A stretch of 64,000 nucleotides of DNA from an uncultured Bacteroidales bacterium (GTDB lineage Bacteria; Bacteroidota; Bacteroidia; Bacteroidales; CAYRRV01), in the NCBI GenBank assembly GCA_964426725.1, contig CAYRRV010000015.1, positions 7,765-71,764 on the forward strand, in the 5' to 3' direction. Below, one piece after another: positions 2 to 61,727 of the stretch (position 1 is its first letter; each line of letters begins with the position of its first letter). The position numbers were made by a program, and so were the translations under genes. A model generated the notes under the pieces. The model was not told where the DNA came from and searched no databases. It saw only the letters and a program-made list of their open reading frames with translations.

Positions 2-211
2 AGGGTCTTCTATGAATATTCATCACAGGCAATAATGAGCCTGAAATATGAAGCCGGAGAAGATATGATTGTACTCGATCATTTATCACCCATCGAACCC
101 CAGTTAAAAGGTAATTACAAGTTCTACGGGCCTGATTTTATTTACGATGCCTTCCGTTTCGAAAAAGGGGAATGGGTATATTATCATGATGTGGACATAA
201 CCAACCAGTGA
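2..211 (+). CDS. C-terminal fragment of a hypothetical protein (5' end outside window)
   Basis: Frame 2 is open from the window edge to TGA at 209-211 (ends ...NYKFYGPDFIYDAFRFEKGEWVYYHDVDITNQ). It is absent from the ORF track because it has no start in the window. No family recognised. Confidence 0.35.
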   Translation, partial: RVFYEYSSQAIMSLKYEAGEDMIVLDHLSPIEPQLKGNYKFYGPDFIYDAFRFEKGEWVYYHDVDITNQ

Positions 212-298
212 CGCCTCATATTTGATATTGCAGAAGGGATGACAATTCATTCAGGGCATGGCACAAGACAATCATCATTTTTTCCTCGACATGACACC
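206..298 (+). repeat. ~95-nt intergenic repeat family, copy 1 (5' palindrome degenerate)
   Basis: CAGTGACGCCTCAT-ATTTGATATTGCAGAAGG...ATGGCACAAGACAATCATCATTTTTTCCTCGACATGACACC. Aligns block by block with the copies at 26538 and 61637. The 5' end overlaps the stop codon of the upstream ORF and the 3' block points toward htpG. Confidence 0.7.
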
Positions 299-3680: not shown

Positions 3681-3776
3681 GTAATGACAAGGCGCTTTTG
3701 ATATTGCAGAAAGGATGTGTATATATTTTGTAGAAATACCAGGGAACAACCGACACCTTTTAATCGATAAGACATC
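3681..3776 (+). repeat. ~95-nt intergenic repeat family, copy 2 (degenerate)
   Basis: GTAATGACAAGGCGC-TTTTGATATTGCAGAAAGGATGT...GGGAACAACCGACACCTTTTAATCGATAAGACATC. Blocks 2 and 3 are recognisable. The 3' block ends about 17 nt from the stop of the 3794-4174 gene. Confidence 0.55.
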
Positions 3777-3793
3777 AGAATGAATCAGGAAAG

Positions 3794-4174: not shown

Positions 4175-4227
4175 TTTAATAAATATATAACTGGTTTTTC
4201 AAATATATGATTTTTATTTATTTCTAG

Positions 4228-4319
4228 TATCATGTCCATGAAAAAATGTCGGTTGATCTGCGTCACAAACCGTAAATAAAGGACATCTTTTCTGTAATAT
4301 CAAGCGTAATGCGTCACTA
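4228..4319 (-). repeat. ~95-nt intergenic repeat family, copy 3
   Basis: Reverse complement reads TAGTGACGCATTAC-GCTTGATATTACAGAAAAGATGTCC...GTGACGCAGATCAACCGACATTTTTTCATGGACATGATAC. The 3' block ends about 55 nt upstream of the receiver gene start at 4174. Confidence 0.75.
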
Positions 4320-11090: not shown

Positions 11091-11186
11091 TAGTGACGCG
11101 TTACATTTACAATTATATAGAATGAATGTTCGTCATTTTGAACAACTATCACAGATCAGCCAACATTTTTTTCATTGACAATACAT
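11091..11186 (+). repeat. ~95-nt intergenic repeat family, copy 4
   Basis: TAGTGACGCGTTAC...CTATCACAGATCAGCCAACATTTTTTTCATTGACAATACAT. The palindrome starts 12 nt from the divergent nitroreductase start and the 3' block points to the CNNM gene. Confidence 0.7.
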
Positions 11187-21543: not shown

Positions 21544-21619
21544 CATGTCACACGAAAGAACCCGGGAATAAAAATTTCCGGGTTCTTTAAGCTGTTAAAT
21601 CCCTGGTGACGCGTCACTC
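21544..21619 (-). repeat. partial/hybrid copy of the intergenic repeat (perfect palindrome plus strong hairpin)
   Basis: Reverse complement reads GAGTGACGCGTCAC...AAAGAACCCGG-12 nt-CCGGGTTCTTT-CGTGTGACATG. An 11-bp hairpin (21555-21588) replaces the middle blocks. Lies between the MCP stop and the ACS start. Confidence 0.5.
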
Positions 21620-21675
21620 GGATACATGGTACAAATCAAATATCATTTATTCATTGATATGACATTAGCAATTTA

Positions 21676-23718
21676 TTATGTTTCATTTTCTGCTTTTTCT
21701 TCCTTCATGGAATCTTCCATTTCATTTTCCATATTTATATCAAATTTTTGAAGTACTTCACCTCTCACGGGAGAATCATTCATCATTTTCTCGATTTGCA
21801 CGTGCCCCGAACTATCAACTTTAAAGAAACTAATTAATTCTTTTAATTCTTCAGCCTGGCTGGCCAATTCCTCTGAACTGGTTGCCATTTCCTCGGAAGC
21901 TGCTGCATTTTGCTGCGTAACTTTGGATAGTTCCTGAATGGAAATATTTATTTGATCGGCGCCATTTCTTTGTTCCAGGCTGGCTGCAGAAATTTCCTGG
22001 ATAAGGCTCGCTGTTTTTTCAATTTCAGGAACAATTTTTTCGAGCCGATCACCTGATTCCCGTGCTTTTTCATAACCTGACTTTGCAAGCTGAATAATCT
22101 CGTTTGCCGCGTCACGGCTATGCTCGGCGAGTTTCCTAACCTCAGAAGCCACCACGGCAAAACCCTTACCGTGTTCTCCGGCCCTGGCAGCCTCAACGGC
22201 AGCATTCAACGCCAAAAGATTAGTTTGAAAAGCAATATCGTTAATAACCGTGATTTTCTCTGAAATATCGTGCATGGAATCGAGTGAAATTTTGGCCGAT
22301 TCGTTTGCTGCCCTAATGGCATCTGTGGCAGCCCTGGATATTTTTTCAGTTTGTTGTGCATTATCTGAATTCTGTTCAATATTCGCGGCCATTTCTTCTA
22401 TCGCGGACGAGACCTCTTCAGCGGAAGCTGCCTGCTCGGAGGCACCCTGAGACATTTGCTGTGATCCACTACTAAACTGAAGGCTGGCCTGGGAAATATT
22501 CTCGGATGCATAGGAAATGTTATGCACGATATCCTTTAACCGAAATACCATGTTATTCAAAGCAGTGGATAATCTGCCGATTTCATCCTTCTGATCCACT
22601 TCAAGGGTGGATGTAAGATCGCCTCCTGCAATATTCTCCGCGAAAGTAACCCCCTTATTCACTGCCCTCTTTATTGATAAACTTATGAGATTCACGACCA
22701 AAAATACAACTGCAAGCGCTATCAATGCCGAAATAAAGACACCGGCCCTGATCTGATTGAGCTGCTGTAACAGTGCATTTTCATAAAAGGATGCTGACAC
22801 GTAAGAATCGATTGGCTCAACATATTTAAAATACTGGTACTTCCATTCGCCTTCACTTGTTTCCGGCCACTGGTAATAGGTTTTCCCCATACTTTTACCA
22901 GCGCGAATGATTTGCTGGAAGAAAGTCTTATCGGCCGCGTTTTCACCTTCCTGGGTAGGATGAATTATAAAATCTCCCTCGCTGTCAACAAGAAAAGGGT
23001 ATCCATTTTCAAAGTATTTAATATTATCAAAAACCTCCTTGATCAATTTGATATCTTTTTCCTTATTGCCAACGTAGAGAATCCCCTGTATTTCCCCATC
23101 AATATCAAAAGGCTGATATGCAGTAAGGTACCAGTCATCAACCACGAAAGCCCTGCCCATGTATGTTTCTCCACTTTCAACGGATTTTACCACCGGAGAA
23201 GAATTGGGAATATATGTGCCTGTTGCTCGTTCCCCTGATTTGTTTCGCACGTTGGTAGATATTCTCAGGTAACCCTGGGGTATCTTCTGGAAGATCGTGG
23301 CTGTACCACCTGTTAATTCGGATACCAAATCAACAAAATTATTATCCCCGTGCAGGGAACGCCCATTCAATATCCATGGATGAACCCGGATAATGCTCGT
23401 TTCACCGGTAATCTGGTTTACAGCTTCTACCTCCTTCATTTCTTCACCAGACCTTATTACTCCTCCCTGTTCCGTAAACAGGTGATCTGCCACTTCAATG
23501 GAACGGCTCACAACGGACTGACTGGATTTAACCTGCAATTCAATAATTGTAGCGAGATCTTCCACCTGCTTATACATCCACTCATCTGTTTGTTCAATTA
23601 GTTCCTTTTTCTGATGATTATAAATGTAAAATCCCATTCCCATGAATACCACGAGCAAAACCAAACCTATAATCAGGTTTAACCTAACATTAATGTTAAA
23701 ATCATTAATCGACTTCAT
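21676..23718 (-). CDS. methyl-accepting chemotaxis protein (Cache-type sensor, HAMP, MCP signalling domain)
   Basis: 680 aa with TM1, a periplasmic Cache-like region (ATGTYIP..., YLTAYQP), TM2, HAMP and the highly conserved hairpin region [38 protein letters not shown]. Confidence 0.9.
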
Positions 23719-23729
23719 AAATCAAAAAT

Positions 23730-24113
23730 TTAGCTTTTATTAACTTCACAAAACACTTCTTCAACAATATCATATAACTGATTTACTACCAATGGCTTGG
23801 CGATAAAACGATTGGCCCCCAGCATTTTCACCAAGGCTTTATCTTCAGAACCTGATAAGGCTGACAAAACGATAACAGGAATATCTCTGTAACCCGAATG
23901 AGATTTCAAAATTTTTAGAAATTCAAAACCATCCATACCCGGTAAAATAATATCCAGAATAATCAGGTCGGGAAGTCCTTTCTCTAGCAGCATGAAAGCA
24001 TCCCTGGCATCAAAAGCAGACCATACCTTGTAATTTGAGCGATCCAGAAGCTCGGTAATTAAAAATCGATTTTGGTAAGAATCATCAACAATCAGAATAG
24101 TTTTCTCTTTCAT
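23730..24113 (-). CDS. stand-alone response regulator receiver (CheY-like), 11 nt upstream of the MCP gene
   Basis: ILIVDDS...DLIILDIILPGMDGFEFL...LSA...KP REC motifs. The ATG at 24113 is preferred over the TTG at 24119. Confidence 0.85.
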   Translation of the reverse strand: MKEKTILIVDDSYQNRFLITELLDRSNYKVWSAFDARDAFMLLEKGLPDLIILDIILPGMDGFEFLKILKSHSGYRDIPVIVLSALSGSEDKALVKMLGANRFIAKPLVVNQLYDIVEEVFCEVNKS

Positions 24114-24393
24114 ACACAACCCACCTTATCTTTAAAATTCTGTATAAACAAATATACGTTACCATTGATTAGATGTACAAGGGTGAAAATACGGGAAACA
24201 TGAAATTCGGGTAATTCCACGCGGGATTTTTCCTACCCTGAATTAAAACAAAGCATTAATTTTCAAATCTTTACAAAAAAGACATACTATGTTACCCAGA
24301 TTAGAAATCGTTAAAAACAAGTATAAATACCCCGTGGGAAATCAGAAAAGTTAAGGTGTAAATGATCGTGAATGCAGGTAATTTTACTCGGAA

Positions 24394-25050
24394 TTATATT
24401 TTTATCAGACGGTTCTTAATAGCAAACATGACAAGGCTCACGGAGTTTTTGGTCCCGGTTTTCTGGATAAGATTAGCCCTGTGCCCGTCGACAGTGCGAG
24501 GACTGATATTTAAAATATCGGCAATTTCATTATTGGTCAATCCCTTGCATATATAATCCAGTACTTCAATCTCGCGCCGTGTAAGTGAAATTTCTTCTTC
24601 CTTCTTACCTTGTTGGAATTTAAAAACCAAATCTCTCTTCTCGGACACCTTGGAAAGCAACTCGGGAGTAATATAAGTATCACCGGACATAACCTTGTAA
24701 ATGGCTTCTTCCAGATCTCTGTTTTCCGAACTTTTAAGAAGAAACCCATGGGCTCCGGCTTCAATCATATGATGAAAGTACTCCTCATCACCCATCATGG
24801 AAAGGGCTATTACTTTAATATCCGGATGTACTTCAAGTACTTTCCGTGTAGCTTCAATTCCATCCATGCCCGGCATCCTGATATCCATGAAAATCATATC
24901 CGGTTTTTTATCTTTAACGAGTTCAAGAAGTTCATTTCCCTCAGCTGCCTCCCCGATAACTTTGATGTTATGAATTGAATTCAGGAAAGTGATTAATCCT
25001 TTCCTGAAAAAATAATGATCATCGACAACAATTACCTGAATTATTTTCAT
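24394..25050 (-). CDS. LuxR/NarL-family response regulator
   Basis: REC domain (VIVVDDH, DMIFMDIRMPGMDG) plus a LuxR HTH (LTRREIEVLDYICKGLTNNEIADILNISPRTVDGHRANL). Confidence 0.9.
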   Translation of the reverse strand: MKIIQVIVVDDHYFFRKGLITFLNSIHNIKVIGEAAEGNELLELVKDKKPDMIFMDIRMPGMDGIEATRKVLEVHPDIKVIALSMMGDEEYFHHMIEAGAHGFLLKSSENRDLEEAIYKVMSGDTYITPELLSKVSEKRDLVFKFQQGKKEEEISLTRREIEVLDYICKGLTNNEIADILNISPRTVDGHRANLIQKTGTKNSVSLVMFAIKNRLIKI

Positions 25051-25126
25051 AAAGGCTAATATATATGTAAAAAGTTATATTTCAAAATCGTTTTAACAAG
25101 TAAAATGGTTTTACCATCAAATAAAT

Positions 25127-26509
25127 TTAGGAAGAAATTTTAATTTTTACATCCATTCCCCTGCCGGGTGCTGAATTAATTATTATGTTTCCCCCGACAG
25201 ATTTTACCCTGGTAATTATGTTTTGCAATCCGGAACCGGGCTTGCTTTTCATTACCAGGTCATGATCGAAACCAATGCCGTTATCCTTGTAAGAAATGTC
25301 AATAAAATCAATATTTTTTATAATTTTCAATTTAATAAAACTGGCAGAAGCGTATTTTAAAGTGTTATTTAATAATTCAGAAATAATCCTGTACAACATC
25401 AATTCGATCTCCTTTGAATATCTTTGCTTTCCAATGTTTTCATCAAATTCAACCTTGATAGTCTGCATGAAGGAGATTTTCTCGATCAGGGCCCTAACAG
25501 CAGATGCAAGACCGTAATCACGTAAAATATAGGGCATTAGATTTTTAGATATCTCACTTGTGGCATTAATGGCCTGCCGGATTAAATCAAGCGCTTCACT
25601 ACCTAACTTTTCTTTATCTTTTTCAGAAAAATTAGAAGACAGCAACATGCTCACGTACATTTTAATACTGGATAACAATGGACCCAATCCATCATGCAAG
25701 TCCTCGGAGAATCTTTTTCTTTCTTTCTGTTCTGTTTCAAGTATGGTCGCGAATATTCTTCTTTCAAAATAGGTGCGCTCTGTTACATCTCTCACCACTA
25801 CAAGGATAGCATCTTTATTGTGGTACTTTATAATCTTAGTCTTGGATTCCACGGGTATCGTTTTACCCGTTCTTGATCGCAAGGCGGAACTAAAAAACAA
25901 TTGTTCCGATTGTCGCAACTGTTCATATTGCATTTCAAAGGATTCAGCCTCCCCTGTTGATAACATTTCCCGCTTAACAGAAACATCAGCCGGGGTCAAT
26001 TGCAGAAGTTCGTCTTTACTATACCCGAGTATATTGCAGGCATAATTATTAACCTCAAGCATATTACCATTAAAATCAAGAATAAAAATGGCATCCTGTA
26101 ATGAATTAAAGATAGATCTGAATTGCAAATCATCATCGTTAATCTGTAATGCTTCAGGTTTTGTTTGATCTTCCTCAAGAATGGAACAACTTAATATATT
26201 ATCTCCATGAAAAGAAAAAACAAGAACAGCATCATGCACTGGGACAGGCTCCAGGGCAACGTTATTCTCAATGGCAGTTTTAAGCTCACCGGGAGAAATA
26301 ATCCGGTTCAGACACATTTGCATGAAACTGATTATTTTATGCCTGGTGCTTAAATTCAACTTTTGCTTGAATTGCTGGCTCACATGCAATATTTCCCTTA
26401 ATTTCAGTTCATTATTGATCAAATGATAGTTGGCCACGACAATACCAACAGGCAAAGTTTTCAATATCTTTTGTGCTATATTAGCTGTAAATACACTCTT
26501 TTTTTTCAA
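25127..26509 (-). CDS. sensor histidine kinase (PAS + HisKA_3 + HATPase_c)
   Basis: PAS-like region (FRSIFNSLQDAIFILD), H-box RFSEDLHDGLGPLL typical of the NarX/DegS-type HisKA_3, and a C-terminal ATPase (DNGIGF, GSGLQNI). TTG start. Confidence 0.85.
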   Translation of the reverse strand: MKKKSVFTANIAQKILKTLPVGIVVANYHLINNELKLREILHVSQQFKQKLNLSTRHKIISFMQMCLNRIISPGELKTAIENNVALEPVPVHDAVLVFSFHGDNILSCSILEEDQTKPEALQINDDDLQFRSIFNSLQDAIFILDFNGNMLEVNNYACNILGYSKDELLQLTPADVSVKREMLSTGEAESFEMQYEQLRQSEQLFFSSALRSRTGKTIPVESKTKIIKYHNKDAILVVVRDVTERTYFERRIFATILETEQKERKRFSEDLHDGLGPLLSSIKMYVSMLLSSNFSEKDKEKLGSEALDLIRQAINATSEISKNLMPYILRDYGLASAVRALIEKISFMQTIKVEFDENIGKQRYSKEIELMLYRIISELLNNTLKYASASFIKLKIIKNIDFIDISYKDNGIGFDHDLVMKSKPGSGLQNIITRVKSVGGNIIINSAPGRGMDVKIKISS

Positions 26510-26537: not shown

Positions 26538-26625
26538 TAGTGACGCGTCACACTTGATATTACAGAAAATAAATCCTATATATAGCACGTGTCACGGATC
26601 AACCGACATTTTTTCATTGACACAG
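26538..26625 (+). repeat. ~95-nt intergenic repeat family, copy 5 (best exemplar)
   Basis: TAGTGACGCGTCAC-A-CTTGATATTACAGAAAA-TAAATCCTATATATAGCAC-GTGTCACGGATCAACCGACATTTTTTCATTGACACAG. Carries the perfect 12-bp palindrome GTGACGCGTCAC at 26540-26551. Confidence 0.8.
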
Positions 26626-26847
26626 TATTAATAAAAAACCAGAAATAATATAAAATTAAAATTAGTACAATTTACTAACTTATACCCAAATGATAAAGAC
26701 ACGTGATTTATATAGTGCCGCCAACAAATTAACAAACTTAATTTCGGGCGATGACGATTTCGCCATAGATGAATGTTATGTTCCAACTTCAACGGAGGAA
26801 GTTATCCTTAAGAAAATTGATTGTTCGCTTCTCTCCAATCGCTCAAC

Positions 26848-27600
26848 TTAGGTGTAAATCATTTTCCTGGTCATCCCGCCATCAACTATGAAATTCTGTC
26901 CAGTGATAAATGAATTTTCGGGTTTCATCAGAAACGATACCATGGATGCAATATCTGGGGGTTCTCCCACCCTTCCAGCGGGATGCTGTGTATGATCTTC
27001 CCGTGTGAGTTCGGATTTTTCACGCTTCGATGATTTTTTCCAGCCGGATACATCGATCCAACCAGGGCTGATACAATTGACCCGTACATCCGGTCCTAAA
27101 CTGATGGCCAATGCATGAGTAAGGGCAACAATTCCTCCCTTGGAGGCCGAATAGGCTTCAGTGCCTGGTTCAGACATCAATGCACGAGTGCTGGCTATAT
27201 TAATGATCGCACCCTTGTTTTCACGCAATTGAGACTCGAAATATTTAGAAAACAGGAAAACAGAAGTAAGATTGATCCCGATTATCCTGTTCCAGTCATC
27301 CAAGGACATTTCCTGCAATGACATGAATTCAGAGACCCCGGCATTGTTTATGAGGCAAGAAATGGACTGGTCAATTCCCGAGATCTTCCGGTGAATTTTT
27401 TTTACATCTTCCTCGTTTGAAACATCACCGTGTATAAAGTGAATTTTTCCTGATTTATCCAGCTCCGTGGCGGTTTCGTTACCGGCGATTTCGTCAATAT
27501 CAACAATAAAAACAGGGAACCCTTCCTTACAAAGCCGGGTAGCAATGCCCTTGCCAATACCCTGAGCACCACCGGTAACGAGTACTGATGAATTTTTCAT
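26848..27600 (-). CDS. SDR-family oxidoreductase
   Basis: TGGAQGIGKGIA Rossmann motif, NAG and YSASKGG (YxxxK). 250 aa. Confidence 0.85.
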   Translation of the reverse strand: MKNSSVLVTGGAQGIGKGIATRLCKEGFPVFIVDIDEIAGNETATELDKSGKIHFIHGDVSNEEDVKKIHRKISGIDQSISCLINNAGVSEFMSLQEMSLDDWNRIIGINLTSVFLFSKYFESQLRENKGAIINIASTRALMSEPGTEAYSASKGGIVALTHALAISLGPDVRVNCISPGWIDVSGWKKSSKREKSELTREDHTQHPAGRVGEPPDIASMVSFLMKPENSFITGQNFIVDGGMTRKMIYT

Positions 27601-30164: not shown

Positions 30165-30269
30165 GGTGTCATGTCAATGAAAAAAAATGGCGGTTGATCT
30201 GTGCTACATGTCTTAAAATAACGGGACATTTCTTCCGCAATAATAAATAATAAATGTGCCTCGTCACTG
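30165..30269 (-). repeat. ~95-nt intergenic repeat family, copy 6 (about 105 nt)
   Basis: Reverse complement reads CAGTGACGAGGCAC...ATTATTGCGGAAGAAATGTCCCGTTATTTTAAGACAT-GTAGCACAGATCAACCGCCATTTTTTTTCATTGACATGACACC. The 3' block points toward the polyamine operon. Confidence 0.75.
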
Positions 30270-32448: not shown

Positions 32449-32557
32449 AAAAAATTTATATTTTTTTAAAAAAAAACCTGAAAATATTTTGAATTTCGGA
32501 CTTTAATGTCTTATTTTGTTCTGAATTTCAATTACGCCAAGGTACAATCGTGATTGA

Positions 32558-32664
32558 TTTATAAAGAAGAGGCGAGAGAACAGGCTCATTGACCCTCTGG
32601 CAACCTCTTCCTCCAAGGAAAAAGGTGCCAATTCCTGATTCGCCGGCTGGCGAATAAATATAAA
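32558..32664 (+). promoter_or_regulatory. SAM-I (S-box) riboswitch upstream of metY
   Basis: TTTATAAAGAAGAGGCGAGAGAACAGGCTCATTGACCCTCTGGCAACC...AAGGTGCCAATTCCTG-ATTCGCCggctGGCGAAT-AAATATAAA. Shows the conserved GAGGNNAGNG / GGCAACC / GGTGCYAATTCC blocks, a P4 hairpin and P1 closing (TTTATA/TATAAA). Confidence 0.8.
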
Positions 32665-32734
32665 TTAATAAGATTATGGAAAAACAAGCACGTATTTTTT
32701 CTAAAGTGAATTTTCAGGACAACAAATGTCTTAA

Positions 32735-34204
<1,470 letters not shown>

Positions 34205-35528: not shown

Positions 35529-35742
35529 ATCTTTAACATTAGTCAATAAGTAACCACGTGTTAAAGATAAACGATAAAAACCGGTAAACAAGATACTTAT
35601 TCTCATGTTTTATAAAATAACACCTGAAAAACTTGACTTTCGAATACAGTATTCGTATATTTTAGGTTAATTCTTGCTAAAAACCAACCGCCATGACACA
35701 TGAGATTTCATTATATAATGTCCAATATGCAAAAATTCGCTT

Positions 35743-37003: not shown

Positions 37004-37174
37004 CTACAATAAAGAAATAATCATAAATATATAGAATTTAGATGACATTGTGAAATTAACCGGGTAAAAACTCTATTTTAATCAATCAACTAACAAATAA
37101 CAGATACCTCTTGTTCAAGAAAATAGATTTTTTGTAATCAAAATCTTTGATGGAAAAATACTATACTATTGCTT

Positions 37175-37273
37175 GTACATATAAAAAGGTAGTTAATTTG
37201 TGCCACATGCCCTAAAAATAAAGGGATATACCTGCTGCAATATTAATTATCACCTTAATGTCACGCGTCACTA
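37175..37273 (-). repeat. ~95-nt intergenic repeat family, copy 7 (3' block degenerate)
   Basis: Reverse complement reads TAGTGACGCGTGAC...TTAATATTGCAGCAGGTATATCCCTTTATTTTTAGGGCAT-GTGGCACAAATTAACTACC. The palindrome abuts the hypE stop codon (37271-37273). Confidence 0.6.
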
Positions 37274-38284
37274 ACATATCCTGGGTAATTGCTCCCCGGC
37301 CAGCATGTCCACGATTCTCGATCCTCCTATGGTAGTTCTCATTAATACTTTTCGGGGATTTTCACTGGTCACCGAACCAATTATAGAAGCATCTTTTCCC
37401 AATGGATTGTTTTGTAGTATACTGATTATCTTGTCGCTATCTTTTGGATCAACGATTATTACAACTTTTCCCTCGTTGGCAACATACAGGGGATCAAACC
37501 CAAATATTTCACACGCTCCTCTAACGCCTTCACGGATGGGTATTTGGGTTTCGTCAATATTTATTCCAAGGTTCCGGTACTGCACCAGTTCATTGAGCAC
37601 GGAAGCAAGTCCTCCCCTGGTAGCATCCCGCATGAATTTGATATGGCAACCGGCATCTGTCAACTCTTTAATCATGTAATATAAGCTGGCACAATCTGAA
37701 TGGATTTCAGATTCAAAATGAAGCGATTCTCTTGCAGCCATAACGGAGATTCCATGATCACCCAGTGTTCCGTTAACAAGCACCATATCACCGGGCTGAA
37801 TTTTATTTCCTGTTATAACTGCCTCATAACCTTCAATAGCAGTACCTATTCCGGTTGTATTGATAAAAATTTTATCGCATTTGCCCTTGTTCACCACTTT
37901 TGTATCGCCGGTAACAATTTTCACCCCGGCATTCATTGCTTCCGCGGCCATGGATATCACGATCTTTTCCAGGTCTTTTAGAGGAAATCCTTCCTCAATG
38001 ATAAATGCCACGCTTATATACAAGGGTTTACCACCACTTACGGCAATATCATTCACGGTACCACAAACCGCGAGTTTACCAATATCTCCTCCCGGGAAAA
38101 AAATGGGATCAACCACGAAAGAATCGGTGGTAAAAAGAACATTTTTACCAATGTTATCCAAAAGTGCAGCATCACCCTGGACCATCAGTTTATCATTACC
38201 AAAATGTTTATAAAAAAGATTCTGGATAAGGTCATGGGTCAACTTACCACCGCTCCCGTGCCCGAGTAATACTTTATTTTCCAT
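37271..38284 (-). CDS. hypE: hydrogenase expression/formation protein HypE
   Basis: LLGHGSGGKLTHDLI N-terminus, PurM-like fold and the C-terminal PRIC motif. Confidence 0.95.
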   Translation of the reverse strand: MENKVLLGHGSGGKLTHDLIQNLFYKHFGNDKLMVQGDAALLDNIGKNVLFTTDSFVVDPIFFPGGDIGKLAVCGTVNDIAVSGGKPLYISVAFIIEEGFPLKDLEKIVISMAAEAMNAGVKIVTGDTKVVNKGKCDKIFINTTGIGTAIEGYEAVITGNKIQPGDMVLVNGTLGDHGISVMAARESLHFESEIHSDCASLYYMIKELTDAGCHIKFMRDATRGGLASVLNELVQYRNLGINIDETQIPIREGVRGACEIFGFDPLYVANEGKVVIIVDPKDSDKIISILQNNPLGKDASIIGSVTSENPRKVLMRTTIGGSRIVDMLAGEQLPRIC

Positions 38285-38285
38285 T

Positions 38286-39380
38286 TCAAGTGTTCCTGTT
38301 ATATCTATACCAAGCCTGACAAGCTCCCTCGTTGGAAACCATACATGAACCGACCGGGTTCACAGGTGTACATTCTTTTGCAAAAAGTCTGCAATCGGAA
38401 GGTGATTTTATTCCTTTTAACACGGCCCCACAGATGCATCCCCGGGGTTCTAAAGTTTCACCTGGTTGTATGGGTATCATTGCCTCCGCGCTAAACAGGC
38501 GGTACTTTTCTCTGATTTTCATTCCGCTGGCAGGTAGTATGCCCAGTCCTCTCCACCAATCATCCTGTAATTCAAACACTTCATCCAATATTGCCCTGGC
38601 TTTTTGATTTCCAGACTCAGTAACGGCTCTTTTATATTGGATTTCAACAGCAGGCTGGCTACTTTCTACCTGATTAACAAGCATGTATATTCCCTGTAAA
38701 ATATCAATGGGCTCGAACCCGGTAACCACCACACCAAGTCCATACTTGGAGGCTATTTGATGATACATACTTGTACCCGTGATGGTAGTAACATGACCTG
38801 GAGCCAGGTAGCCGTCCAGTTGCACGCCCTCGTCAACCAAGGCTGTCATCGCTGGTGGCATTATCTTGTGTGAACTCAACAGAAAAAAGTTATCCAACCC
38901 CATTTTTGAGGCCTGAATGACTGCCACAGCAGAACCCGGTGCCGTTGTTTCAAACCCAATTCCAAGAAAAACTACTTTCTTATTCACATTATCGCGTGCA
39001 ATCTGAATGGCTTCAAGTGAAGACTGCACCATGCGGACATCGGCCCCGTTTGCTTTTTCTTTTTCGAGAGTTGAACGTGATCCCGGAACTCTTATTAAAT
39101 CACCGAAAGTGGTTACAATAACATCATCTAAATGACTGTAAGCTATTGCTTTATCAATAAAACCCCTGCCCGTAACGCAAACCGGACAGCCGGGGCCAGA
39201 TAATAGTCGAATATTAGAAGGTAACAAAGATGGGATTCCAAACTTGTGAATGGCCATGGTATGGCCACCACATATCTCCATAAAGGCAACCTTTCTCCGG
39301 GATACTTCATTGATTTTATGCACCAGTTTTTTTACCAGGGTGGCATCCCTGTACTCATCCATGTATTTTACAGGGGCCAT
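38286..39380 (-). CDS. hypD: hydrogenase formation protein HypD
   Basis: CGGHT, GPGCPVCV and GFETT motifs. 364 aa. Confidence 0.95.
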   Translation of the reverse strand: MAPVKYMDEYRDATLVKKLVHKINEVSRRKVAFMEICGGHTMAIHKFGIPSLLPSNIRLLSGPGCPVCVTGRGFIDKAIAYSHLDDVIVTTFGDLIRVPGSRSTLEKEKANGADVRMVQSSLEAIQIARDNVNKKVVFLGIGFETTAPGSAVAVIQASKMGLDNFFLLSSHKIMPPAMTALVDEGVQLDGYLAPGHVTTITGTSMYHQIASKYGLGVVVTGFEPIDILQGIYMLVNQVESSQPAVEIQYKRAVTESGNQKARAILDEVFELQDDWWRGLGILPASGMKIREKYRLFSAEAMIPIQPGETLEPRGCICGAVLKGIKSPSDCRLFAKECTPVNPVGSCMVSNEGACQAWYRYNRNT

Positions 39381-39631
39381 TATTCTTCCCCGGTTTTTGG
39401 CAATTCATTATCCCAGGGATTTTCTTCCAGTTCCTTTATAAGCTGAAGGGTTTCCTTGGCTTCTTCTTCACTTATTTTTTGCAGGGCAAAACCCGTGTGC
39501 ACCAGTATGTAGTCTCCCACTTGCACGTCATCCACGAGTTGCAGTCCTGCAGTAACAACAGTTCCCCCGATAGATGCTTTCGCTGTTTCTCCTTCTATGG
39601 AAATAATTTTTGCCGGTATACTTAAACACAT
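39380..39631 (-). CDS. hypC: HypC/HybG/HupF family hydrogenase chaperone
   Basis: MCLSIPAKII N-terminal Cys motif. 83 aa. Overlaps hypD by 1 nt and hypF by 10 nt. Confidence 0.9.
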   Translation of the reverse strand: MCLSIPAKIISIEGETAKASIGGTVVTAGLQLVDDVQVGDYILVHTGFALQKISEEEAKETLQLIKELEENPWDNELPKTGEE

Positions 39632-41943
39632 AATTCTTCTCTTTTTTTTGCTGCAATTACTAATTGTCCTAATGCTATACCCCCGTCATTGGAAGGTACA
39701 GTACCATGGGTAAGTACCCTGAAACCATTCTCCTCCAAAAGTGGTTCGGTTTTCCCCAACAGGTACCTGTTCTGAAATGTACCCCCGGAAAGAACAACGG
39801 TATTAATACCATGTATTTCCCGGATTTTTTTCGTCACTGTAAAAATAACCGAAATGATTGTATTATGAAATCTTGTAGCAATGTTTTGTATATCTTCGTT
39901 TCGTGAAATATCATCCATAATAGCTCGTGTAGTTGATTTAAATGAAATCACGTTTTTTTGAAAATCAAAAGGATATTCTCCCCTGATACCAGGATTTATT
40001 GCTGCCTCCAACCTCATGGGAGCCTCGGCATGAAAACCGCTGTTCAAACAAAGGCCTGTAATGGCAGCAATACCATCAAATAACCGTCCTGCACTGGAAC
40101 TCAAGGGTGAATTGATATTTTTTTCAATGGCCTGTATTATAAGATTAATTTTCCCGGGATCAATTTTTTGCAATAAATTCATATCAACATGAAAAATATC
40201 TTTCCCGAATGTATGATACAGGTAACTCAGGCCTGTACGCCAAGGTTGTTTTGTTGCTACATCCCCTCCCGGTACCGGGATGTACTCAAAATGAGCTTCT
40301 CTTGAATATCCTGACAAATCAGCAACCAAAAACTCTCCTCCCCAGATATGACCATCGTCACCTAAACCAGTGCCATCAAAGCACACCCCGATTACTTTTT
40401 CATAATGCCCATGTTCGGCCATGCAAGAGGCCAAATGGGCATGATGATGTTGGATTTTTACCTGAGGTAGTCCTGTTTCAGCGGCGTATGAACTTGAAAG
40501 ATAATCAGGATGCAAATCCCGGGCAACAAGTGAAGGCTGAAACCGGAATAATTTTTTATACCTTTTGATTGATTCCGTGTAAAAAGAATAAGTTTCATAA
40601 TTCTTTAAATCCCCAATATACTGACTTAAGATAGCCTGATTCTCCCTGCCAATAGCAAAACAATTCACCAGCTCGGCCCCGGTAGCCAATATGCCTTCAA
40701 CATTTAAACTTGTTAACACGGGTGATGGTGCAAATCCTCTTGATCGCCTGATTAACCTTTGCTTCTTATTCACTGAAAATGCAACAGAATCGTCTACCCG
40801 GTTATTAATGTCACGGTTATGTTCAACTATAGCATCAACCCTGCTGCCAAAACATTTTTCTGCTTTTTTATTATCAATAATAATAGGTTCATCAGAAATA
40901 TTACCGCTGGTTAAAACAATGGCCGGCGATTCCAGCTTAGCAAGTAACTGGTAATGAAAAGGCATGTAGGGTAATAGCACACCAAGAGTTGGAAATCCGT
41001 TAGAAACAGCCTGTACAGGAAATTTGTCCGATTGAAGGATTACAACCGGTCTCTGCCAGGATTCAAGTATTTGTTGCTCATTTTTATCCACAGAAACATA
41101 TGATTGGAGGGATAAAATATCACGGAACATAACGGCAAAGGGTTTGGCTTCCCTTTGCTTAATTTGTCTTAGCCTTTCAACAGCCCTGTTACTGAAAGCA
41201 TCGCACATGAGATGGTATCCACCGATACCTCGTACCGCAATAATTTTCTCTTCTTTAATCAGCATGGTAATCCTCTCCAGGATTGCATCAATTCCATTTA
41301 GTAAATTACCTCCCTCGATCAACTGGTAATTCGGTCCACAGGAATTACATGCCACGGGTTGGGCGTGAAATCGGCGATCGAGAATATCATGGTATTCTCG
41401 TGCACAATCAGCGCACATTGCAAATTCAGACATGGTTGTATTTTCCCGGTCATAAGGCAAATCCCGGGTTATGCTGAAGCGCGGACCACAATTGGTGCAG
41501 TTGGTAAAAGGATAATCCAACCGATGCGACTGATGTTTCATATCGCGTATACAATCCGGACACACGGCAATATCAGGACTCACCCATGTAATTCCTTCTA
41601 CATCTGATTCACTTGATTTTATGGTAAAAGAACTGACATGTTTTGTTTTCGTTTCCAATATTTCGATAGATTCAATGGTTGCCGCGAGAGGAGCTTCACG
41701 TTGAATATCAGCGATGAAGTTTTGAATCGATCCATTCAGTCCTTCCACGTGTAAAGTAACCCCGTGAAGGTTATTGGTAACCCACCCGGAGAGGTCATGT
41801 TTCAAGGCCAGCCTGTAAATGAAAGGCCTGAACCCTACCCCCTGCACTAAACCATTTATTGTAATCTTTCTCGCTTTCAAATATTTTCGATAGTTATTAC
41901 CACAAAACGATAAGTTTAAGGTAAAAATTTCGTCCTGGTTCAT
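39622..41943 (-). CDS. hypF: carbamoyltransferase HypF
   Basis: Acylphosphatase domain (INGLVQGVGFRPFIYRLA), two CxxC-x18-CxxC zinc fingers (CPDC...CTNCGPR, CADC...CNSCGP), and YrdC and Kae1-like domains. 773 aa. Confidence 0.95.
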   Translation of the reverse strand: MNQDEIFTLNLSFCGNNYRKYLKARKITINGLVQGVGFRPFIYRLALKHDLSGWVTNNLHGVTLHVEGLNGSIQNFIADIQREAPLAATIESIEILETKTKHVSSFTIKSSESDVEGITWVSPDIAVCPDCIRDMKHQSHRLDYPFTNCTNCGPRFSITRDLPYDRENTTMSEFAMCADCAREYHDILDRRFHAQPVACNSCGPNYQLIEGGNLLNGIDAILERITMLIKEEKIIAVRGIGGYHLMCDAFSNRAVERLRQIKQREAKPFAVMFRDILSLQSYVSVDKNEQQILESWQRPVVILQSDKFPVQAVSNGFPTLGVLLPYMPFHYQLLAKLESPAIVLTSGNISDEPIIIDNKKAEKCFGSRVDAIVEHNRDINNRVDDSVAFSVNKKQRLIRRSRGFAPSPVLTSLNVEGILATGAELVNCFAIGRENQAILSQYIGDLKNYETYSFYTESIKRYKKLFRFQPSLVARDLHPDYLSSSYAAETGLPQVKIQHHHAHLASCMAEHGHYEKVIGVCFDGTGLGDDGHIWGGEFLVADLSGYSREAHFEYIPVPGGDVATKQPWRTGLSYLYHTFGKDIFHVDMNLLQKIDPGKINLIIQAIEKNINSPLSSSAGRLFDGIAAITGLCLNSGFHAEAPMRLEAAINPGIRGEYPFDFQKNVISFKSTTRAIMDDISRNEDIQNIATRFHNTIISVIFTVTKKIREIHGINTVVLSGGTFQNRYLLGKTEPLLEENGFRVLTHGTVPSNDGGIALGQLVIAAKKREELCV

Positions 41944-44287
41944 GTTTTATAAATCCCCTGTACGTGCTAAGGTGATTTTTATAGGAACGGTCAAAAATAT
42001 TTTCAATCCCACCGAATAACTGAACCCGGGAAGACCCGAAATTAATTCTTTGGGAATGAATATCAAAATTATATATAGCATAACCGCTCGTCGCTGGTTC
42101 ATTTTCAGCCAATCTTTCCTTGTCAGCAAATAATATAACATTTGTTTCAGCATTTAGCCAGCCCGGCAACCGGTACCTGATACCTACCTGACCATTCACG
42201 GGTGGAATTCCAACCAGCGGTTCACCCGTGCTTACATCCTGACCATAAACATAAGAAGCCCGAGATGACAGGACAAAATTCCTGGCGAAGTTATATTCCC
42301 CAAAAAAATCAAAACCCCACAAAGTAGCCTCGTTAATATTCATATTAACCAGGGCCGGCAATGTATCGGGCACCCCGCCTGTAGTGTACTCTTTCACGAA
42401 TATACCGGGTTCCTGGTAAATCAGGTTATCCAAAGTATTGAAAAACACGTTGGTTTTCCAGTTAAACCGGTTACCCCAGTAACGGGTTCCCAGGTCAAAA
42501 AAATACCCTTGTTCAGGTTCAAGGTCGGGGTTACCAAGATCCACGTATGCCCCGAGATCAATGTACTTGTATCGCTCCTCGAGAGAGGGACTCCTGAACG
42601 AACGAGCGAGATTCAGCGTTATATCCAAATCACTGGTTGCCTTATAAAGTAAACCAGCGTTAGCACTCCACGAGACGTTCGTTACATTGCCTTCACTAAA
42701 AGTTACTTTCTGGTTTGGAGGTGTTTCGTTTCTAACTCCATCGATAATAATATAATAGGGGTCAACTGCTTCTTTATTCATCACCTGAATATAATCGAAC
42801 CGCCCTCCAAGAGAAACCTTCAATTTGTTATTCAGGGTGAAGAAATTATCCTGAACAAAGAATCCAATATCAGAGAATGAACTTTCGGGAATCGGGATTT
42901 CACCAATTATTCTGTTTTGATATCCCACGGTTGTCCCACTGGTATCCTGGATTGGAATGGTCTGGTTTTTTTCCCGGCTGGTAGATAATTGTCTTTGCCA
43001 GGCCTCAATTCCACCTGTTACTTCATGATTGCTAAAAAAGCGCCAATTGGTCTGTAATGATAATCCGTTGGTAAGATGCTTTCCGGCGGGGGTTATTCTG
43101 ACATTTGGATTAGGCTGAAGAAGAACATCCCTTAAAATATACTGGTTAAAATATTTTAATGTAAGTTTGTTGAGGCTAGGTAACAAACCCGTGGCATGAT
43201 AAGATATGCTTGTCAGGTCGCGCTTCTCAATTGGATAAGTAGCGGTTGCATTGGGCGGAAATGCAGCCCCTCCTGGTATCCCTACATCCTCGGCCCTGAA
43301 ACGGTTCATTAAGATTTCCACTTCATGGTTTTTCGCGATTTTAGCACCTCCCCGAAAAGATAAATTGTAATCGGTAAACTGACTATTGGGTAACTCTCCT
43401 TCCGGTGTAATTACGTCATCTGCATCGCGATACGACAAATTAAGCCGACCATGAAAATTTTTACTACCGGCACGAATCATCGTGTTCCCTGCATACATGG
43501 AATTTGCAGTATGATAAGAACCCGCTACCCTGCCATTCAGGTATGGTTTGTTATTATAATACCCTGACCCGGTAATCACGTTAACAATACCACCCATGGC
43601 GCCCGTGCCATAAATGGATGATGCTGCACCTTTGATAACTTCAATTCTTTCAATATCAAAAGGATCGATCATTGACAATGCCGCGGATAAATCGGTGGCT
43701 GTCTCGAGCCTGTTGCCATCAATCATGGTAATTAACCGCTGTTCAGACAGCCCACGAATATTTACTGAAGTACCCCACATGCCATCTCGCGATAGCACAA
43801 CCCCAGGTTCTTTTGCCAGCAAATCGGGTATGGTATATACCGAGTGACGAAAAACGTCCTTTTTATCAATAATACCGACAGGGAGCGGAACCTGTCTTAT
43901 ATTATTTTCAGCACGAAGGCTCAAAACAATGACTTCCCCGAGAGATAATATCTTTTCTTCCAGGTGGAGGGTAACATCATTCATTACTTCTTCTAAATCA
44001 ACCGTTTTCTGATAATTGATATAGCCTACACCCGAAGTTTTTAAGATATAAGAATCACTTGGTATACCTGAAATAGAAAATTGCCCTTTTTTGTCGGTAA
44101 CCGCGAAAAATACAGGTTCTCCTGTGGTATCAGGATATGCATGTAATAACACGTGTACAGCGGGTAGCGGTTTCCCTGTCTCCTTTTCCAAAACTTTCCC
44201 CTTCAGGGAGACCTGTCCGAATAGTCCGTTAGTAATTAGAATGAAAGAAAAGAATCCAACTACAAATTTACTTGTTTTCATCATCAA
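41897..44287 (-). CDS. TonB-dependent receptor with CarboxypepD_reg-like N-terminal domain
   Basis: Signal peptide, the LKGKVLEKETGKPLPAVHVLL fold motif, a plug (VIKGAASSIYGTGAMGGIVNV) and a beta-barrel ending in aromatic W. 3' end overlaps the hypF start by 47 nt. 5' end overlaps the TM1266-like gene by 20 nt. Confidence 0.9.
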   Translation of the reverse strand: MMMKTSKFVVGFFSFILITNGLFGQVSLKGKVLEKETGKPLPAVHVLLHAYPDTTGEPVFFAVTDKKGQFSISGIPSDSYILKTSGVGYINYQKTVDLEEVMNDVTLHLEEKILSLGEVIVLSLRAENNIRQVPLPVGIIDKKDVFRHSVYTIPDLLAKEPGVVLSRDGMWGTSVNIRGLSEQRLITMIDGNRLETATDLSAALSMIDPFDIERIEVIKGAASSIYGTGAMGGIVNVITGSGYYNNKPYLNGRVAGSYHTANSMYAGNTMIRAGSKNFHGRLNLSYRDADDVITPEGELPNSQFTDYNLSFRGGAKIAKNHEVEILMNRFRAEDVGIPGGAAFPPNATATYPIEKRDLTSISYHATGLLPSLNKLTLKYFNQYILRDVLLQPNPNVRITPAGKHLTNGLSLQTNWRFFSNHEVTGGIEAWQRQLSTSREKNQTIPIQDTSGTTVGYQNRIIGEIPIPESSFSDIGFFVQDNFFTLNNKLKVSLGGRFDYIQVMNKEAVDPYYIIIDGVRNETPPNQKVTFSEGNVTNVSWSANAGLLYKATSDLDITLNLARSFRSPSLEERYKYIDLGAYVDLGNPDLEPEQGYFFDLGTRYWGNRFNWKTNVFFNTLDNLIYQEPGIFVKEYTTGGVPDTLPALVNMNINEATLWGFDFFGEYNFARNFVLSSRASYVYGQDVSTGEPLVGIPPVNGQVGIRYRLPGWLNAETNVILFADKERLAENEPATSGYAIYNFDIHSQRINFGSSRVQLFGGIENIFDRSYKNHLSTYRGFIKHEPGRNFYLKLIVLW

Positions 44288-44534: not shown

Positions 44535-44660
44535 CAGATTTCCTCCGGATTAGATGCTGTTCAGAAACCTTGAAACGGATAAAATCCGATCCTCAGTTAA
44601 TAAAAGCAGTTTTATTAATTGACAGCAAAAATAACAATATATTTTGAAAGAAAAACACTA

Positions 44661-44678
44661 TTGTTATCAAAATAACAA
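44661..44678. promoter_or_regulatory. Rex-operator-like palindrome upstream of the TM1266-like/TonB-receptor/hypFCDE operon
   Basis: TTGTTAT-CAAA-ATAACAA, 18 bp, the same core as the two boxes at 52350-52384. About 127 nt upstream of the 44534 start. An extra inverted repeat ATAACAATA (44631-44639) / TATTGTTAT (44659-44667) is present. Confidence 0.5.
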
Positions 44679-44841
44679 GAGAAGCTACCTCATGGGGCTC
44701 ACGAATTCTATGCATGGGTGTGCATGTCCATCGATTATTTAAAGACATAAATTCACATGAAGATATACAAAATATCAAAGATAAAAAAGACATTAGTTTT
44801 ATGCCTTCAAAAGCTGAAAAAGAAACACGAGTACAGGAATA

Positions 44842-45060
44842 CTAACGCATTGATCTCCGGATTGCTTTCTTGGTAGCTTTCCTGTATGTTTTGTGCGATT
44901 TTTTGAGTTTCGCGTTGTACTTTTTACTGTTCATAATGGCATTTCTGGGCAGTTCCCTGGTATCCAGCAACATCAAGCCTCTCTTTGAACTAAAGGACTT
45001 GCTTGATGAACTGCAACCGAAACACGCGAATACAAATAATATGATTACAATTCTCATCAT
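44842..45060 (-). CDS. small basic hypothetical protein with signal peptide
   Basis: 72 aa. MMRIVIILFVFACFGCSSS, then a Lys/Arg-rich tail. Weak support; no family recognised. Confidence 0.3.
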   Translation of the reverse strand: MMRIVIILFVFACFGCSSSSKSFSSKRGLMLLDTRELPRNAIMNSKKYNAKLKKSHKTYRKATKKAIRRSMR

Positions 45061-45302
45061 AGCAATTGATTTTTACTTGATGATACGGCAATAATCTATA
45101 TTGGTTGCATTATTTCACAAAAATTCTCCTAATAGTTGAAGTTAGAGAAAAAAGCATATCTTACAGCACTATAAATCATATCAATTGTTAGTCAGGTAGA
45201 ATTATCTTACATATAAATACGGTTTTATTCTATTTTTAAAATTAGTATGTACAACCCGCTTATTTAAAGAGAGACGGCTGGATTTTTTAAACATTAGCTA
45301 TT

Positions 45303-45336
45303 AAAAAAAAGAGGTTATCTTTTTTAAGATAACCTC
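45303..45336 (-). terminator. rho-independent terminator ending the rex-hox operon
   Basis: GAGGTTATCTT-tttt-AAGATAACCTC. On the minus strand it is followed by T8, 23 nt after the DHOD-like stop. Confidence 0.8.
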
Positions 45337-45358
45337 CTCATGTAAATTTATAAATCTC

Positions 45359-46342
45359 TCAATCTATTTTTCCGATAGTTTTTTTCATGAACTGAACTCT
45401 TTCAAAGGCCGCTGAACTTTGTTCATCTTTCACGGCTATTCCCCGGCAGTCATCCAATGAATTATAGCCCTGACGATTCATCCAAGCCTCAAATTCCCGG
45501 AGCATAGTACCGGCATAACTAATTCCGTTCTTGTAAAGAGTAGAACAGACCTGCACGGTGGTGGCTCCAGCAAGAATTTGCCTGGCCATGCCCGTGAAAT
45601 CATGGATACCGGTAGAAGCCGCTATATTACAACCTGCTTTGGCTGACATGAGTGCCACCCAACGCAAAGGGATGGTAATTTCCTCCGGTGAACTATATCG
45701 ATTTCTGGCAACAACCGCCACGTTATCAATATCTATATCAGGACGAAAAAACCTGTTAAATAATATTATGGCACCAATACCTGCATTACTCAGTTTATGA
45801 ATAAACCGGGCAGGATTTGTAAAATGAAATCCTATTTTTACCGCGATGGGTAACCCTGTATTTTTCTTCACCTCCTTAATAATATCAAAATAGGTATCTT
45901 CTATTCTCGAGGGAGGATAATTCATATCCGCAGGAGAAATACTTACGTTTAATTCCAGCCCATCGGCACCGGATTTTTCAATTTCTGAGGCAAAAACTGG
46001 CCATTCCCGCGGTGTAATGCAGTTAATGCTGGCGATAACCGGAATACTGGTTTCCTTTTTTGCCGCTGCAATAAGATTCAAGTAGGCATCTACACCATCT
46101 TCACGACTAAACTCATTAAGGTAATCAATAGCTTCGGGGTACCAGAAATACATGTCGTCCTGGGTCATCAAGCGGTCTTTGTCTACAAGAATTTGCTCCT
46201 CGAAAAGAGATTTAAGAACAACGGCACCAACGCCGGCTTCCTCGCACTTCTTAACTTTTTCCACCGAGTTGGTCAGCTCAGAACTACTTACAATCAAGGG
46301 ATTTTTTAGTTTCAAGCCCATGTAGTTTGTTGATAAATCCAT
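45359..46342 (-). CDS. dihydroorotate dehydrogenase-like (class 1 DHOD/DPD-fold) flavoprotein
   Basis: 327 aa. TIM-barrel FMN-binding pattern (NPLIVSSS..., GADGLELN.S.P, final GG.. region). Last gene of the hox transcription unit. Confidence 0.7.
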   Translation of the reverse strand: MDLSTNYMGLKLKNPLIVSSSELTNSVEKVKKCEEAGVGAVVLKSLFEEQILVDKDRLMTQDDMYFWYPEAIDYLNEFSREDGVDAYLNLIAAAKKETSIPVIASINCITPREWPVFASEIEKSGADGLELNVSISPADMNYPPSRIEDTYFDIIKEVKKNTGLPIAVKIGFHFTNPARFIHKLSNAGIGAIILFNRFFRPDIDIDNVAVVARNRYSSPEEITIPLRWVALMSAKAGCNIAASTGIHDFTGMARQILAGATTVQVCSTLYKNGISYAGTMLREFEAWMNRQGYNSLDDCRGIAVKDEQSSAAFERVQFMKKTIGKID

Positions 46343-46375
46343 AATCGTGTTGTTTTAAAGGGTTTATTGGTATTT

Positions 46376-48312: not shown

Positions 48313-48324
48313 TTTTCTAAAATT

Positions 48325-48873: not shown

Positions 48874-48880
48874 TTTTTTA

Positions 48881-49597: not shown

Positions 49598-49610
49598 GAG
49601 TTTTTAACAT

Positions 49611-51425: not shown

Positions 51426-51436
51426 AGATCCTTAAA

Positions 51437-52349: not shown

Positions 52350-52384
52350 TTGTTATTTTAATAACAATGTTATTTTAATAACAA
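52350..52384. promoter_or_regulatory. two tandem Rex-operator-like palindromes between rex-hox and the hyd cluster
   Basis: TTGTTATTTTAATAACAA (52350-52367) and ATGTTATTTTAATAACAA (52367-52384). Each matches the TTGTTAA-N4-TTAACAA type in 12 or 11 of 14 specified positions. They lie about 75-105 nt upstream of the first hyd-cluster gene. Confidence 0.55.
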
Positions 52385-61638: not shown

Positions 61639-61727
61639 TGACGCGTCACGTGTAACATTGAAGAAGTAATATCCTTTTTACGACATATGGCACAGATCAA
61701 CCGTCATTTTTTCATTGACATGACACC
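61637..61727 (+). repeat. ~95-nt intergenic repeat family, copy 8
   Basis: TAATGACGCGTCAC...ATGGCACAGATCAACCGTCATTTTTTCATTGACATGACACC. The palindrome overlaps the rhodanese stop codon and the 3' block ends 23 nt before the aceE ATG. Confidence 0.8.

Follow-up and report, generated by a model that had tools for sequence, protein, structure and literature searches.

The question raised by this locus is what the repeats of about 90 bases are that stand between the genes of an uncultured Bacteroidales species, one of which, at 26538-26625 (+), had been described in a first-pass annotation as a member of a ~95-nt family. The window referred to below is the whole stretch of DNA that was analysed (64 kb). 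Three parts of the repeat are distinguished, namely block 1 (containing a 12-bp palindrome, at the left end), block 2 and, beyond a variable middle, block 3 at the right end. The ~90-nt repeats are a real family and an ordinary kind of genomic feature; they look like an apparently undescribed family of miniature non-coding transposable elements, belonging to one uncultured Bacteroidales species. One protein encoded in the window shares at least 90% identity with a protein annotated from a Bacteroidales MAG.

An HMM was derived from an alignment of the eight full copies that had been claimed and was searched against the window using nhmmer. Exactly those eight full copies were returned (E-values of 1e-19 to 1e-28), together with one 58-nt copy carrying an internal deletion, and the rest of the window was at noise level. 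An independent repeat finder recovered the same family as the sole sizeable dispersed repeat in the window. The copy at 26538-26625 is genuine (E 4e-25). With two further copies found outside the window, the density is 11 copies per ~79 kb, or one per ~7 kb (9 in the window, 1 in assembly L029 and 1 in L003/L026). The copies are as follows, with coordinates of the window unless otherwise stated and flanks given as left/right 4-mers.

209..296 (+): full copy, 88 nt; nhmmer E 4e-24; flanks CCAG (205-208) / CCAT (297-300); CAAGACAATCATCAT subfamily in block 3, with htpG downstream.
3685..3774 (+): full copy, the most degenerate, 90 nt; nhmmer E 4e-22; flanks GTAA / TCAG; 3' of a receiver gene (3794-4174, -) and in opposite orientation to that gene.
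4228..4316 (-): full copy, 89 nt; nhmmer E 1e-27; flanks CTAG / CTAG, which form a perfect direct repeat of 4 bp; located 5' of the receiver gene.
11094..11185 (+): full copy, 92 nt; nhmmer E 6e-22; flanks TTAG / TTAG; divergent region between a nitroreductase gene (start 11079) and a CNNM transporter gene.
21607..21664 (+): short copy, 58 nt; nhmmer match to HMM positions 57-107, E 1.3e-4; flanks CTGG / TTAG.
26541..26624 (+): the copy named at the outset; nhmmer E 4e-25; left flank TTAG; blocks 1 and 2 perfect; right terminus short, as if one TGACA unit had been lost, the right boundary being defined to within a few bases.
30167..30266 (-): full copy, 100 nt; nhmmer E 1e-25; flanks CCAG / CCAG; insertion in block 2 and a T8 run; divergent region between a polyamine operon and a gene for 720 aa.
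37170..37270 (-): full copy with a degenerate right end; nhmmer E 3e-19; flanks TTAG / ATAG; the TAG of the left flank is the native hypE stop codon.
61639..61725 (+): full copy, 87 nt; block 3 as in the consensus; nhmmer E 6e-27; flanks CTAA / CCAA; the TAA of the left flank is the stop codon of a rhodanese gene.
16669-16758 of L029 (-): full copy beyond the window, ~6 kb past the window start; flanks ATAG / ATAG.

Most of the architecture proposed in the first-pass annotation was recovered: the palindrome GTGACGCGTCAC is perfect in two copies (at 21606 and 26540), block 2 is exact in four, and the block 3 consensus occurs exactly at 61689-61727. With up to two mismatches, this 12-mer has 9 occurrences in the window against 0.7 expected, and 8 of the 9 lie inside copies. 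Two subfamilies can be separated by block 3 (GATCAACCGNCAT versus CAAGWCAATCATCAT), and the flanking 4-mers differ between their members. It was also borne out that all copies are intergenic. Two points had to be corrected. The element reported as a minus-strand hybrid at 21544-21619 is really the short plus-strand copy 21607-21664, in which the HMM match begins directly after the perfect palindrome; block 3 thus follows the left terminus and palindrome at once, block 2 and the middle being absent; its sequence reads as an internal-deletion derivative keeping both termini exactly. The decayed fragments suggested at 35684-35703 (no match) and 61020-61115 (E 9.9) were unsupported by the HMM search. 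To the left of the short copy, at 21556-21592, a perfect stem of ~12 bp (AAAGAACCCGG...CCGGGTTCTTT) with the appearance of a terminator lies between the chemotaxis-receptor and acyl-CoA synthetase genes; it is unrelated to the repeat, with which it had been merged.

The family is non-coding and dispersed, with units of 58-100 bp; this size and the 11 copies in ~79 kb agree with what is required of a MITE (below ~300 bp, non-coding, with many dispersed copies). No ORF is kept across the copies in the alignments, where a variable base on the reverse strand gives Cys, Trp or a stop and the length of the T-run shifts the frame. A small reverse-strand peptide (MSMKKCRLICATC) was considered and rejected, being interrupted by a stop at the variable base in copy 61639 and by the frame shift due to T-run length.

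The boundaries of the element proper were set where similarity among copies begins (TGAC) and stops (...GACA). The unit thus starts with TGACGCGTCAC, ends with TTGACATGACA, has the form 5'-TG...CA-3' and measures 87-100 nt. The triplet to the left of TGAC is flank and not element, because the conserved C-terminal end of HypE (...PRIC) is followed by TAG and then by TGAC, while the rhodanese gene ends in TAA-TGAC and the SpoU methylase gene in TAG-TGA. In three copies the upstream gene terminates on the TAG or TAA of the left flank, as hypE does with its native stop (...PRIC*). The statement that block 1 abuts an upstream stop codon at 206, 37273 and 61637 is correct; at copy 209..296 the upstream ORF reads ...CAG up to the element's own TGA, the first three bases of the element serving as its stop (...DITNQ*).

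The two ends had been described as imperfect inverted repeats of each other. The terminal 10-mers TGACGCGTCA and TGTCATGTCA (the right end as reverse complement) are identical at 7/10 positions (binomial ~0.006 at a fixed register), but the two halves of the element, when freely aligned as inverted repeats, do not score above shuffles. The putative terminal inverted repeat is thus short as well as imperfect. Conservation along the element is uneven, with a mean pairwise identity of 0.78 in block 1, 0.75 in block 2, 0.47 in the middle and 0.68 in block 3. Block 3 is identical over 39/39 positions in copy 61639-61725 and in the L003 copy, the left halves of which are strongly divergent; such identity across divergent copies could possibly reflect constraint in active master copies, gene conversion or a host function.

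The flanks were then compared within each copy, target-site duplication having been one of the checks proposed. Four copies have perfect pairs of 4-mers, of four different sequences (CTAG/CTAG, TTAG/TTAG, CCAG/CCAG and ATAG/ATAG), and two copies have pairs with one mismatch (CCAG/CCAT and CTAA/CCAA), again what is looked for in a MITE; left/right similarity ends after 4 bases. Exact permutation of the flanks of the 8 copies with unambiguous ends (40,320 re-pairings) reached the observed total of matches with p=0.0014 and the four perfect pairs with p=0.0024; the value was p=0.006 when all 10 copies were used, including the two with ambiguous right ends; these values refer to a sample of 8-10 copies with boundaries set after inspection of the data. 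The 4-mers are not element sequence, since four different perfect repeats would need parallel mutations at both ends, and the subfamily structure does not explain the matches, since the two CAAGWCAATCATCAT members have CCAG and ATAG. The matching flanks indicate a 4-bp target-site duplication at an nTAG (NYAG) target.

These features argue for a MITE-like non-autonomous element that is moved by a transposase acting in trans and duplicates 4 bp when it inserts at nTAG, which we consider the likely explanation. It had been one of three candidates in the first-pass annotation and is favoured here by the target-site duplications, the conserved termini, the deletion form that keeps both ends, the occurrence in one species and the random orientation, although no empty site was found. 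We infer the transposase, transposition by cut and paste, and mobility itself; the enzyme, encoded at another place in the genome, would bind both ends (TGACGCGTCA / TGACATGACA), and insertion at nTAG (NYAG) with a 4-bp staggered cut would duplicate four bases. Sites tolerant of insertion that contain TAG would often be stop codons, which would explain why several copies coincide exactly with the stop codon that ends the preceding gene. Copies would persist only between genes, in either orientation, and effects on neighbours, such as the stop codon supplied at 209 or the position as promoter or leader at aceE, would be a by-product. Present-day mobility of the element is putative. Also speaking against a MITE are the short and imperfect inverted repeat, the lack of the long stem-loop that most described bacterial MITEs form, and the uneven conservation. 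No transposase and no longer parent element with matching ends was found among the genes scanned or annotated in ~79 kb.

The response-regulator gene at 3794-4174 (-, 126 aa) is bracketed by two inverted copies with their right ends facing the gene (window 3685-4316). A composite transposon around this gene was rejected, copy 4228-4316 having its own CTAG/CTAG duplication; copies 3685-3774 and 4228-4316 are probably two separate insertions.

A second candidate had been a family of structured 5' leaders or sRNAs, which can be widened to any structured RNA (cis-acting 5' leader, sRNA, terminator or mRNA-stabilising element of REP/BIME type). The copies are intergenic and most of them will be co-transcribed with their neighbours, block 3 contains a T-run, and copy 4228-4316 can pair GAAAAGAUGUC with GACAUUUUUUC. 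Against this, RNAalifold returned zero consensus base pairs for the eight copies, single-copy folds had z-scores of -0.9 to +2.1 relative to shuffled sequence, and Rfam gave no match to the element at gathering score or E<=1 over the whole window, nor for one copy alone. In the alignment, copies 26541 and 61639 carry uncompensated changes that disrupt the long-range pairing, the small hairpin proposed for the variable middle is no better than shuffles in 7/9 copies, and the sole palindrome, of 12 bp and loopless, is too short for a hairpin of REP type. The structured-RNA reading is largely refuted by these results, and is very unlikely. In another part of the window, Rfam identified a SAM-I riboswitch (RF00162, 80.5 bits) at 32556-32666 (+), upstream of a gene for a PLP enzyme of Cys/Met metabolism (32777-34204).

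The third candidate, a dispersed promoter or operator cassette, requires the position of the copies relative to genes to be considered. Block 1 does lie close to a divergent start codon at 11091, 26538 and 30269, at a distance of 11-28 nt. Block 3 had been said to point at the start of the next gene in 7/9 copies; the count is really 6/9, and 3 of the 6 are in divergent regions, where either orientation points at a gene. Within co-directional intergenic regions, the element has the same orientation as the genes five times (209, 37170, 61639, L029 and L003) and the opposite one three times (3685, 21607 and 26541). There is no orientation bias relative to genes. In the eight copies that point at a start codon, the distance from the element end is 25, 53, ~125, 149, 166, ~170, 171 and 195 nt (23 to 194 nt when counted from the end of block 3 as first drawn).

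The Bacteroidetes promoter has TAnnTTTG at -7, with or without TTTG at -33, and the 5' UTR in Bacteroides is usually 23-32 nt (PMC7366714). TAnnTTTG is enriched ~3.7-fold in the intergenic DNA of the window (18/54 matches in the 12% that is non-coding) and occurs 25-67 nt before several genes. No window copy contains it in perfect form, near matches being confined to the variable middle. The receiver gene has its own perfect TATATTTG box, at 4207, between the element and its start codon, and in the window the GTGACGCGTCAC palindrome is never found on its own outside the element. Because of the distances, the separate box of the receiver gene, the lack of TAnnTTTG and the palindrome never standing alone, the element does not in general act as promoter for the gene towards which it is directed.

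The region upstream of aceE is a particular case. It measures 112 nt and is almost wholly element, and the end of copy 61639..61725 is 25 nt from the aceE ATG (61751), or 23 nt from 61727, the end of block 3 as first drawn. Since the usual 5' UTR of 23-32 nt compares with a gap of 25 nt, the predicted promoter or transcription start of aceE should fall inside the element, provided that aceE does not share a transcript with the rhodanese gene upstream. The three genes with divergent starts 11-28 nt from copies are transcribed either across the element or from within it. A sigma-54 promoter (GG-N10-GC, TGGCAC-N5-TTGC) was rejected, TGGCAC being present in just 5/11 copies and the -12 position reading AACC and not TTGC; a scan for sigma-70-type promoters, which are not of this phylum's type, was uninformative.

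With these data the regulatory explanation can be weighed. It would see the repeat as a portable cassette kept by the host, in which GTGACGCGTCAC is the operator of a dimeric regulator and the promoter is either block 2 with the T-rich middle or the T-run with CATTG in block 3; unrelated genes (htpG, aceE, polyamine synthesis, response regulators) would share one control input. The cassette may have spread by transposition and now be maintained for its function. The position 25 nt before aceE in a region that the element nearly fills, the three copies 11-28 nt from a divergent start codon, the greater conservation of blocks 1-3 than of the middle, the identity of block 3 despite divergent left halves, and an arrangement of TTTG, 20-22 nt and a T-rich box resembling the -33/-7 layout all fit such a cassette. 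However, no copy has a perfect TAnnTTTG in spite of its intergenic enrichment, the TTTG of block 2 is kept in 2/8 full window copies and its TTG core in 4/8, and the palindrome never occurs alone. Orientation is without bias (5 to 3), three copies face the 3' end of a convergent gene, the start codon lies 53-195 nt past the element in 7/8 of the copies that point at a gene, and the receiver gene has its own box. One site per 7 kb before functionally unrelated genes is unlike a specific regulon, and the family is absent from relatives. A cassette kept by the host is thus unlikely, and the promoter/operator proposal is weakened as a primary role by the 5:3 orientation, the lack of TAnnTTTG and the palindrome never alone, a side effect as at aceE being compatible with the data. 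A control module spread by transposition, and so more than selfish DNA, in which a host regulator binds GTGACGCGTCAC and the highly conserved block 3 or an alternative sigma factor recognises them, is put forward with considerable doubt; if it were true, scattered stress and energy genes (htpG, aceE, polyamine synthesis and several response regulators) would form a regulon built by a mobile element, in a lineage with otherwise TAnnTTTG-type promoters.

For insertion polymorphism, the copies were compared with other assemblies of the species (L001, L002, L007, L008 and L029-L032), which are 99.7-99.98% identical. In five other assemblies, every covered copy occupies the same site with unchanged orientation, copy 30167-30266 being found in place in four of the species' other assemblies, so that no empty site, and no difference of presence/absence or inversion, was observed among these five; the contrast between filled and empty sites that is looked for in a MITE is therefore lacking in this set. 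In a strain comparison over ~20 kb, just two differences fell in or next to a copy, both affecting the 4-mers that flank copy 30167-30266, namely C>G at 30267 (three assemblies) and G>T at 30165 (one assembly). The k-mer assemblies L026, L030 and L031 break inside the element, the Logan contigs L030 and L031 doing so inside copy 61639..61725, because an exact multi-copy repeat disrupts k-mer assemblies.

The same comparison bears on whether the unit is an inverton, that is, a phase-variable invertible promoter, or a recombinase target site copied around the genome. Its ends share inverted TGAC-type motifs, it occurs in both orientations relative to genes, and Bacteroidales are rich in invertons. 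But no copy is flipped in any of the five other assemblies that cover it, the unit is much shorter than known invertons with inverted repeats of just ~10 bp that are imperfect, and direct 4-bp flanking repeats mark transposition and not inversion. An inverton or recombinase site is accordingly regarded as extremely improbable.

The distribution of the family was then explored in databases and relatives, as had been proposed in order to obtain copy number. A block-3 pattern searched for in 185,579 species genomes had four matches, of which three were chance and one genuine. The latter (L003) is JBKHIH010000101.1, a contig of 12 kb with 33% G+C labelled 'MAG: Thiohalospira sp. D1M13_4'. Its proteins, including a GT39, have Bacteroidales relatives, and it is 99.8% identical to a contig from SRR11308339, a run that also holds the species of the window; L003 is most likely a piece of the window organism's genome mis-binned into a gammaproteobacterial MAG. 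To judge from the accession neighbourhood, MAGs and read sets of the host lineage are deposited alongside halophile bins. The same pattern had 13 matches in JGI metagenomes, all of them chance, and none in viral contigs, and blastn of one copy against plasmids and phages gave no match. Zero copies were present in the nearest relatives (AceE 79% and 77% identity, GT39 60%) over 22.7 + 22.7 + 16.4 kb (~62 kb), where ~8 copies would be expected at the density of the window; these relatives differ in aceE synteny and are too distant for an orthologous comparison of intergenic regions in search of empty sites. Within the reach of these data, the family is restricted to a single species, and the statement that it resembles no described element holds against all the databases searched. 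A literature search for the GTGACGCGTCAC palindrome found no paper.

In the two nearest relatives, the region upstream of aceE (L022 9720-10000 and L023 9755-10000) shares ATGGCAY followed by a T-run, and downstream of these ATTTTTTCA is found ~22-24 nt before the aceE ATG; this second motif resembles CATTTTTTCA in block 3 of the element, a likeness that may be coincidence in A+T-rich DNA.

The MITE-like element can be set against known systems. The bacterial MITEs, such as Correia/NEMIS of Neisseria, RUP of S. pneumoniae and ERIC/IRU of enterobacteria, are reviewed in PMC2229807 and have terminal inverted repeats of 7-24 bp; like them (PMC2229807), the present repeats are ~100 bp, non-coding, A+T-rich and dispersed as intergenic copies near gene ends and starts. 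Further common traits are target-site duplications, putative terminal repeats of small size, and length variants with preserved ends, comparable to the 107-bp and 155-bp Correia forms. Unlike those MITEs, the present element has a 4-bp duplication at nTAG, where theirs is typically the dinucleotide TA, has TG...CA termini, is asymmetric (its left end carries a 12-bp palindrome, its right end a TGACA-TGACA direct repeat), and differs from nearly all of them in being without a long stem-loop. It has no sequence similarity to anything searched. Correia elements have a density of roughly one per 7-8 kb, like the present element. Few MITE descriptions were found for the Bacteroidetes phylum in the literature search.

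Among insertion sequences, the IS3 family (IS3/IS407) has 5'-TG...CA-3' termini and 3-4-bp duplications, resembling those seen here, and a preference for CTAG or YTAR targets, found in IS5 (YTAR), IS481 and IS630 (CTAG), resembles the present TAG targets. To our knowledge, the terminal sequence of the element resembles no IS3/IS407, IS481, IS5 or IS630 ends, and no transposase gene is linked to it; the resemblances to IS3, IS5, IS481 and IS630 may be taken as leads only. Mobile promoters are homologous intergenic segments upstream of unrelated genes, and the present ~90-bp segment is likewise found upstream of unrelated genes, but it shows no preferred orientation towards genes and lacks a canonical promoter box. 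REPs, which RAYT transposases mobilise (PMC3733652), are hairpins of 20-40 nt headed by GTAG or CGTC, and they do not duplicate their target. The present family is, like REP/BIME, a high-copy intergenic repeat with a palindrome, but its unit is ~90 bp, with a loopless 12-bp palindrome and 4-bp flanking duplications, and neither a stable fold nor a conserved GTAG/CGTC head was seen in the alignment.

The family is of practical value for annotation, because it accounts for the points at which assemblies of this organism break. Three stop codons and one gene end that looks truncated can be tied to the element, which also flags intergenic regions, aceE above all, in which the native control DNA has been replaced or displaced by the element. 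As a probable family of MITE type, it unusually combines a 4-bp nTAG duplication, TG...CA ends and no stem-loop; the understanding of such elements is unchanged, unless block 3 or the palindrome has a host function.

Several features of the surrounding DNA were recorded. Downstream of copy 26541-26624, an ORF of 52 codons (MIKTRDLYSAANKL..., 26690-26848, +) precedes a short-chain dehydrogenase gene and is uncalled in other assemblies too. The interval 44535-45358 (824 nt) has no ORF of at least 80 aa and no Rfam match and carries two TAnnTTTG boxes on the minus strand (44633 and 44783); it could hold small genes or an RNA. Chemotaxis-type signalling genes are not known to be common in Bacteroidales; at 21676-26509 the window encodes a methyl-accepting chemotaxis protein (Cache + HAMP), two receivers, a GerE-type regulator and a PAS histidine kinase. 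A dense neighbourhood of hydrogen metabolism occupies 37271-44287 and 45359-60809, with hypF, hypC, hypD, hypE, hypA and cobW, an operon like those for [NiFe]-hydrogenases that includes a Rex-type regulator (51437-52084), and an operon for a [FeFe]-hydrogenase of HydABC type (52457-60809).
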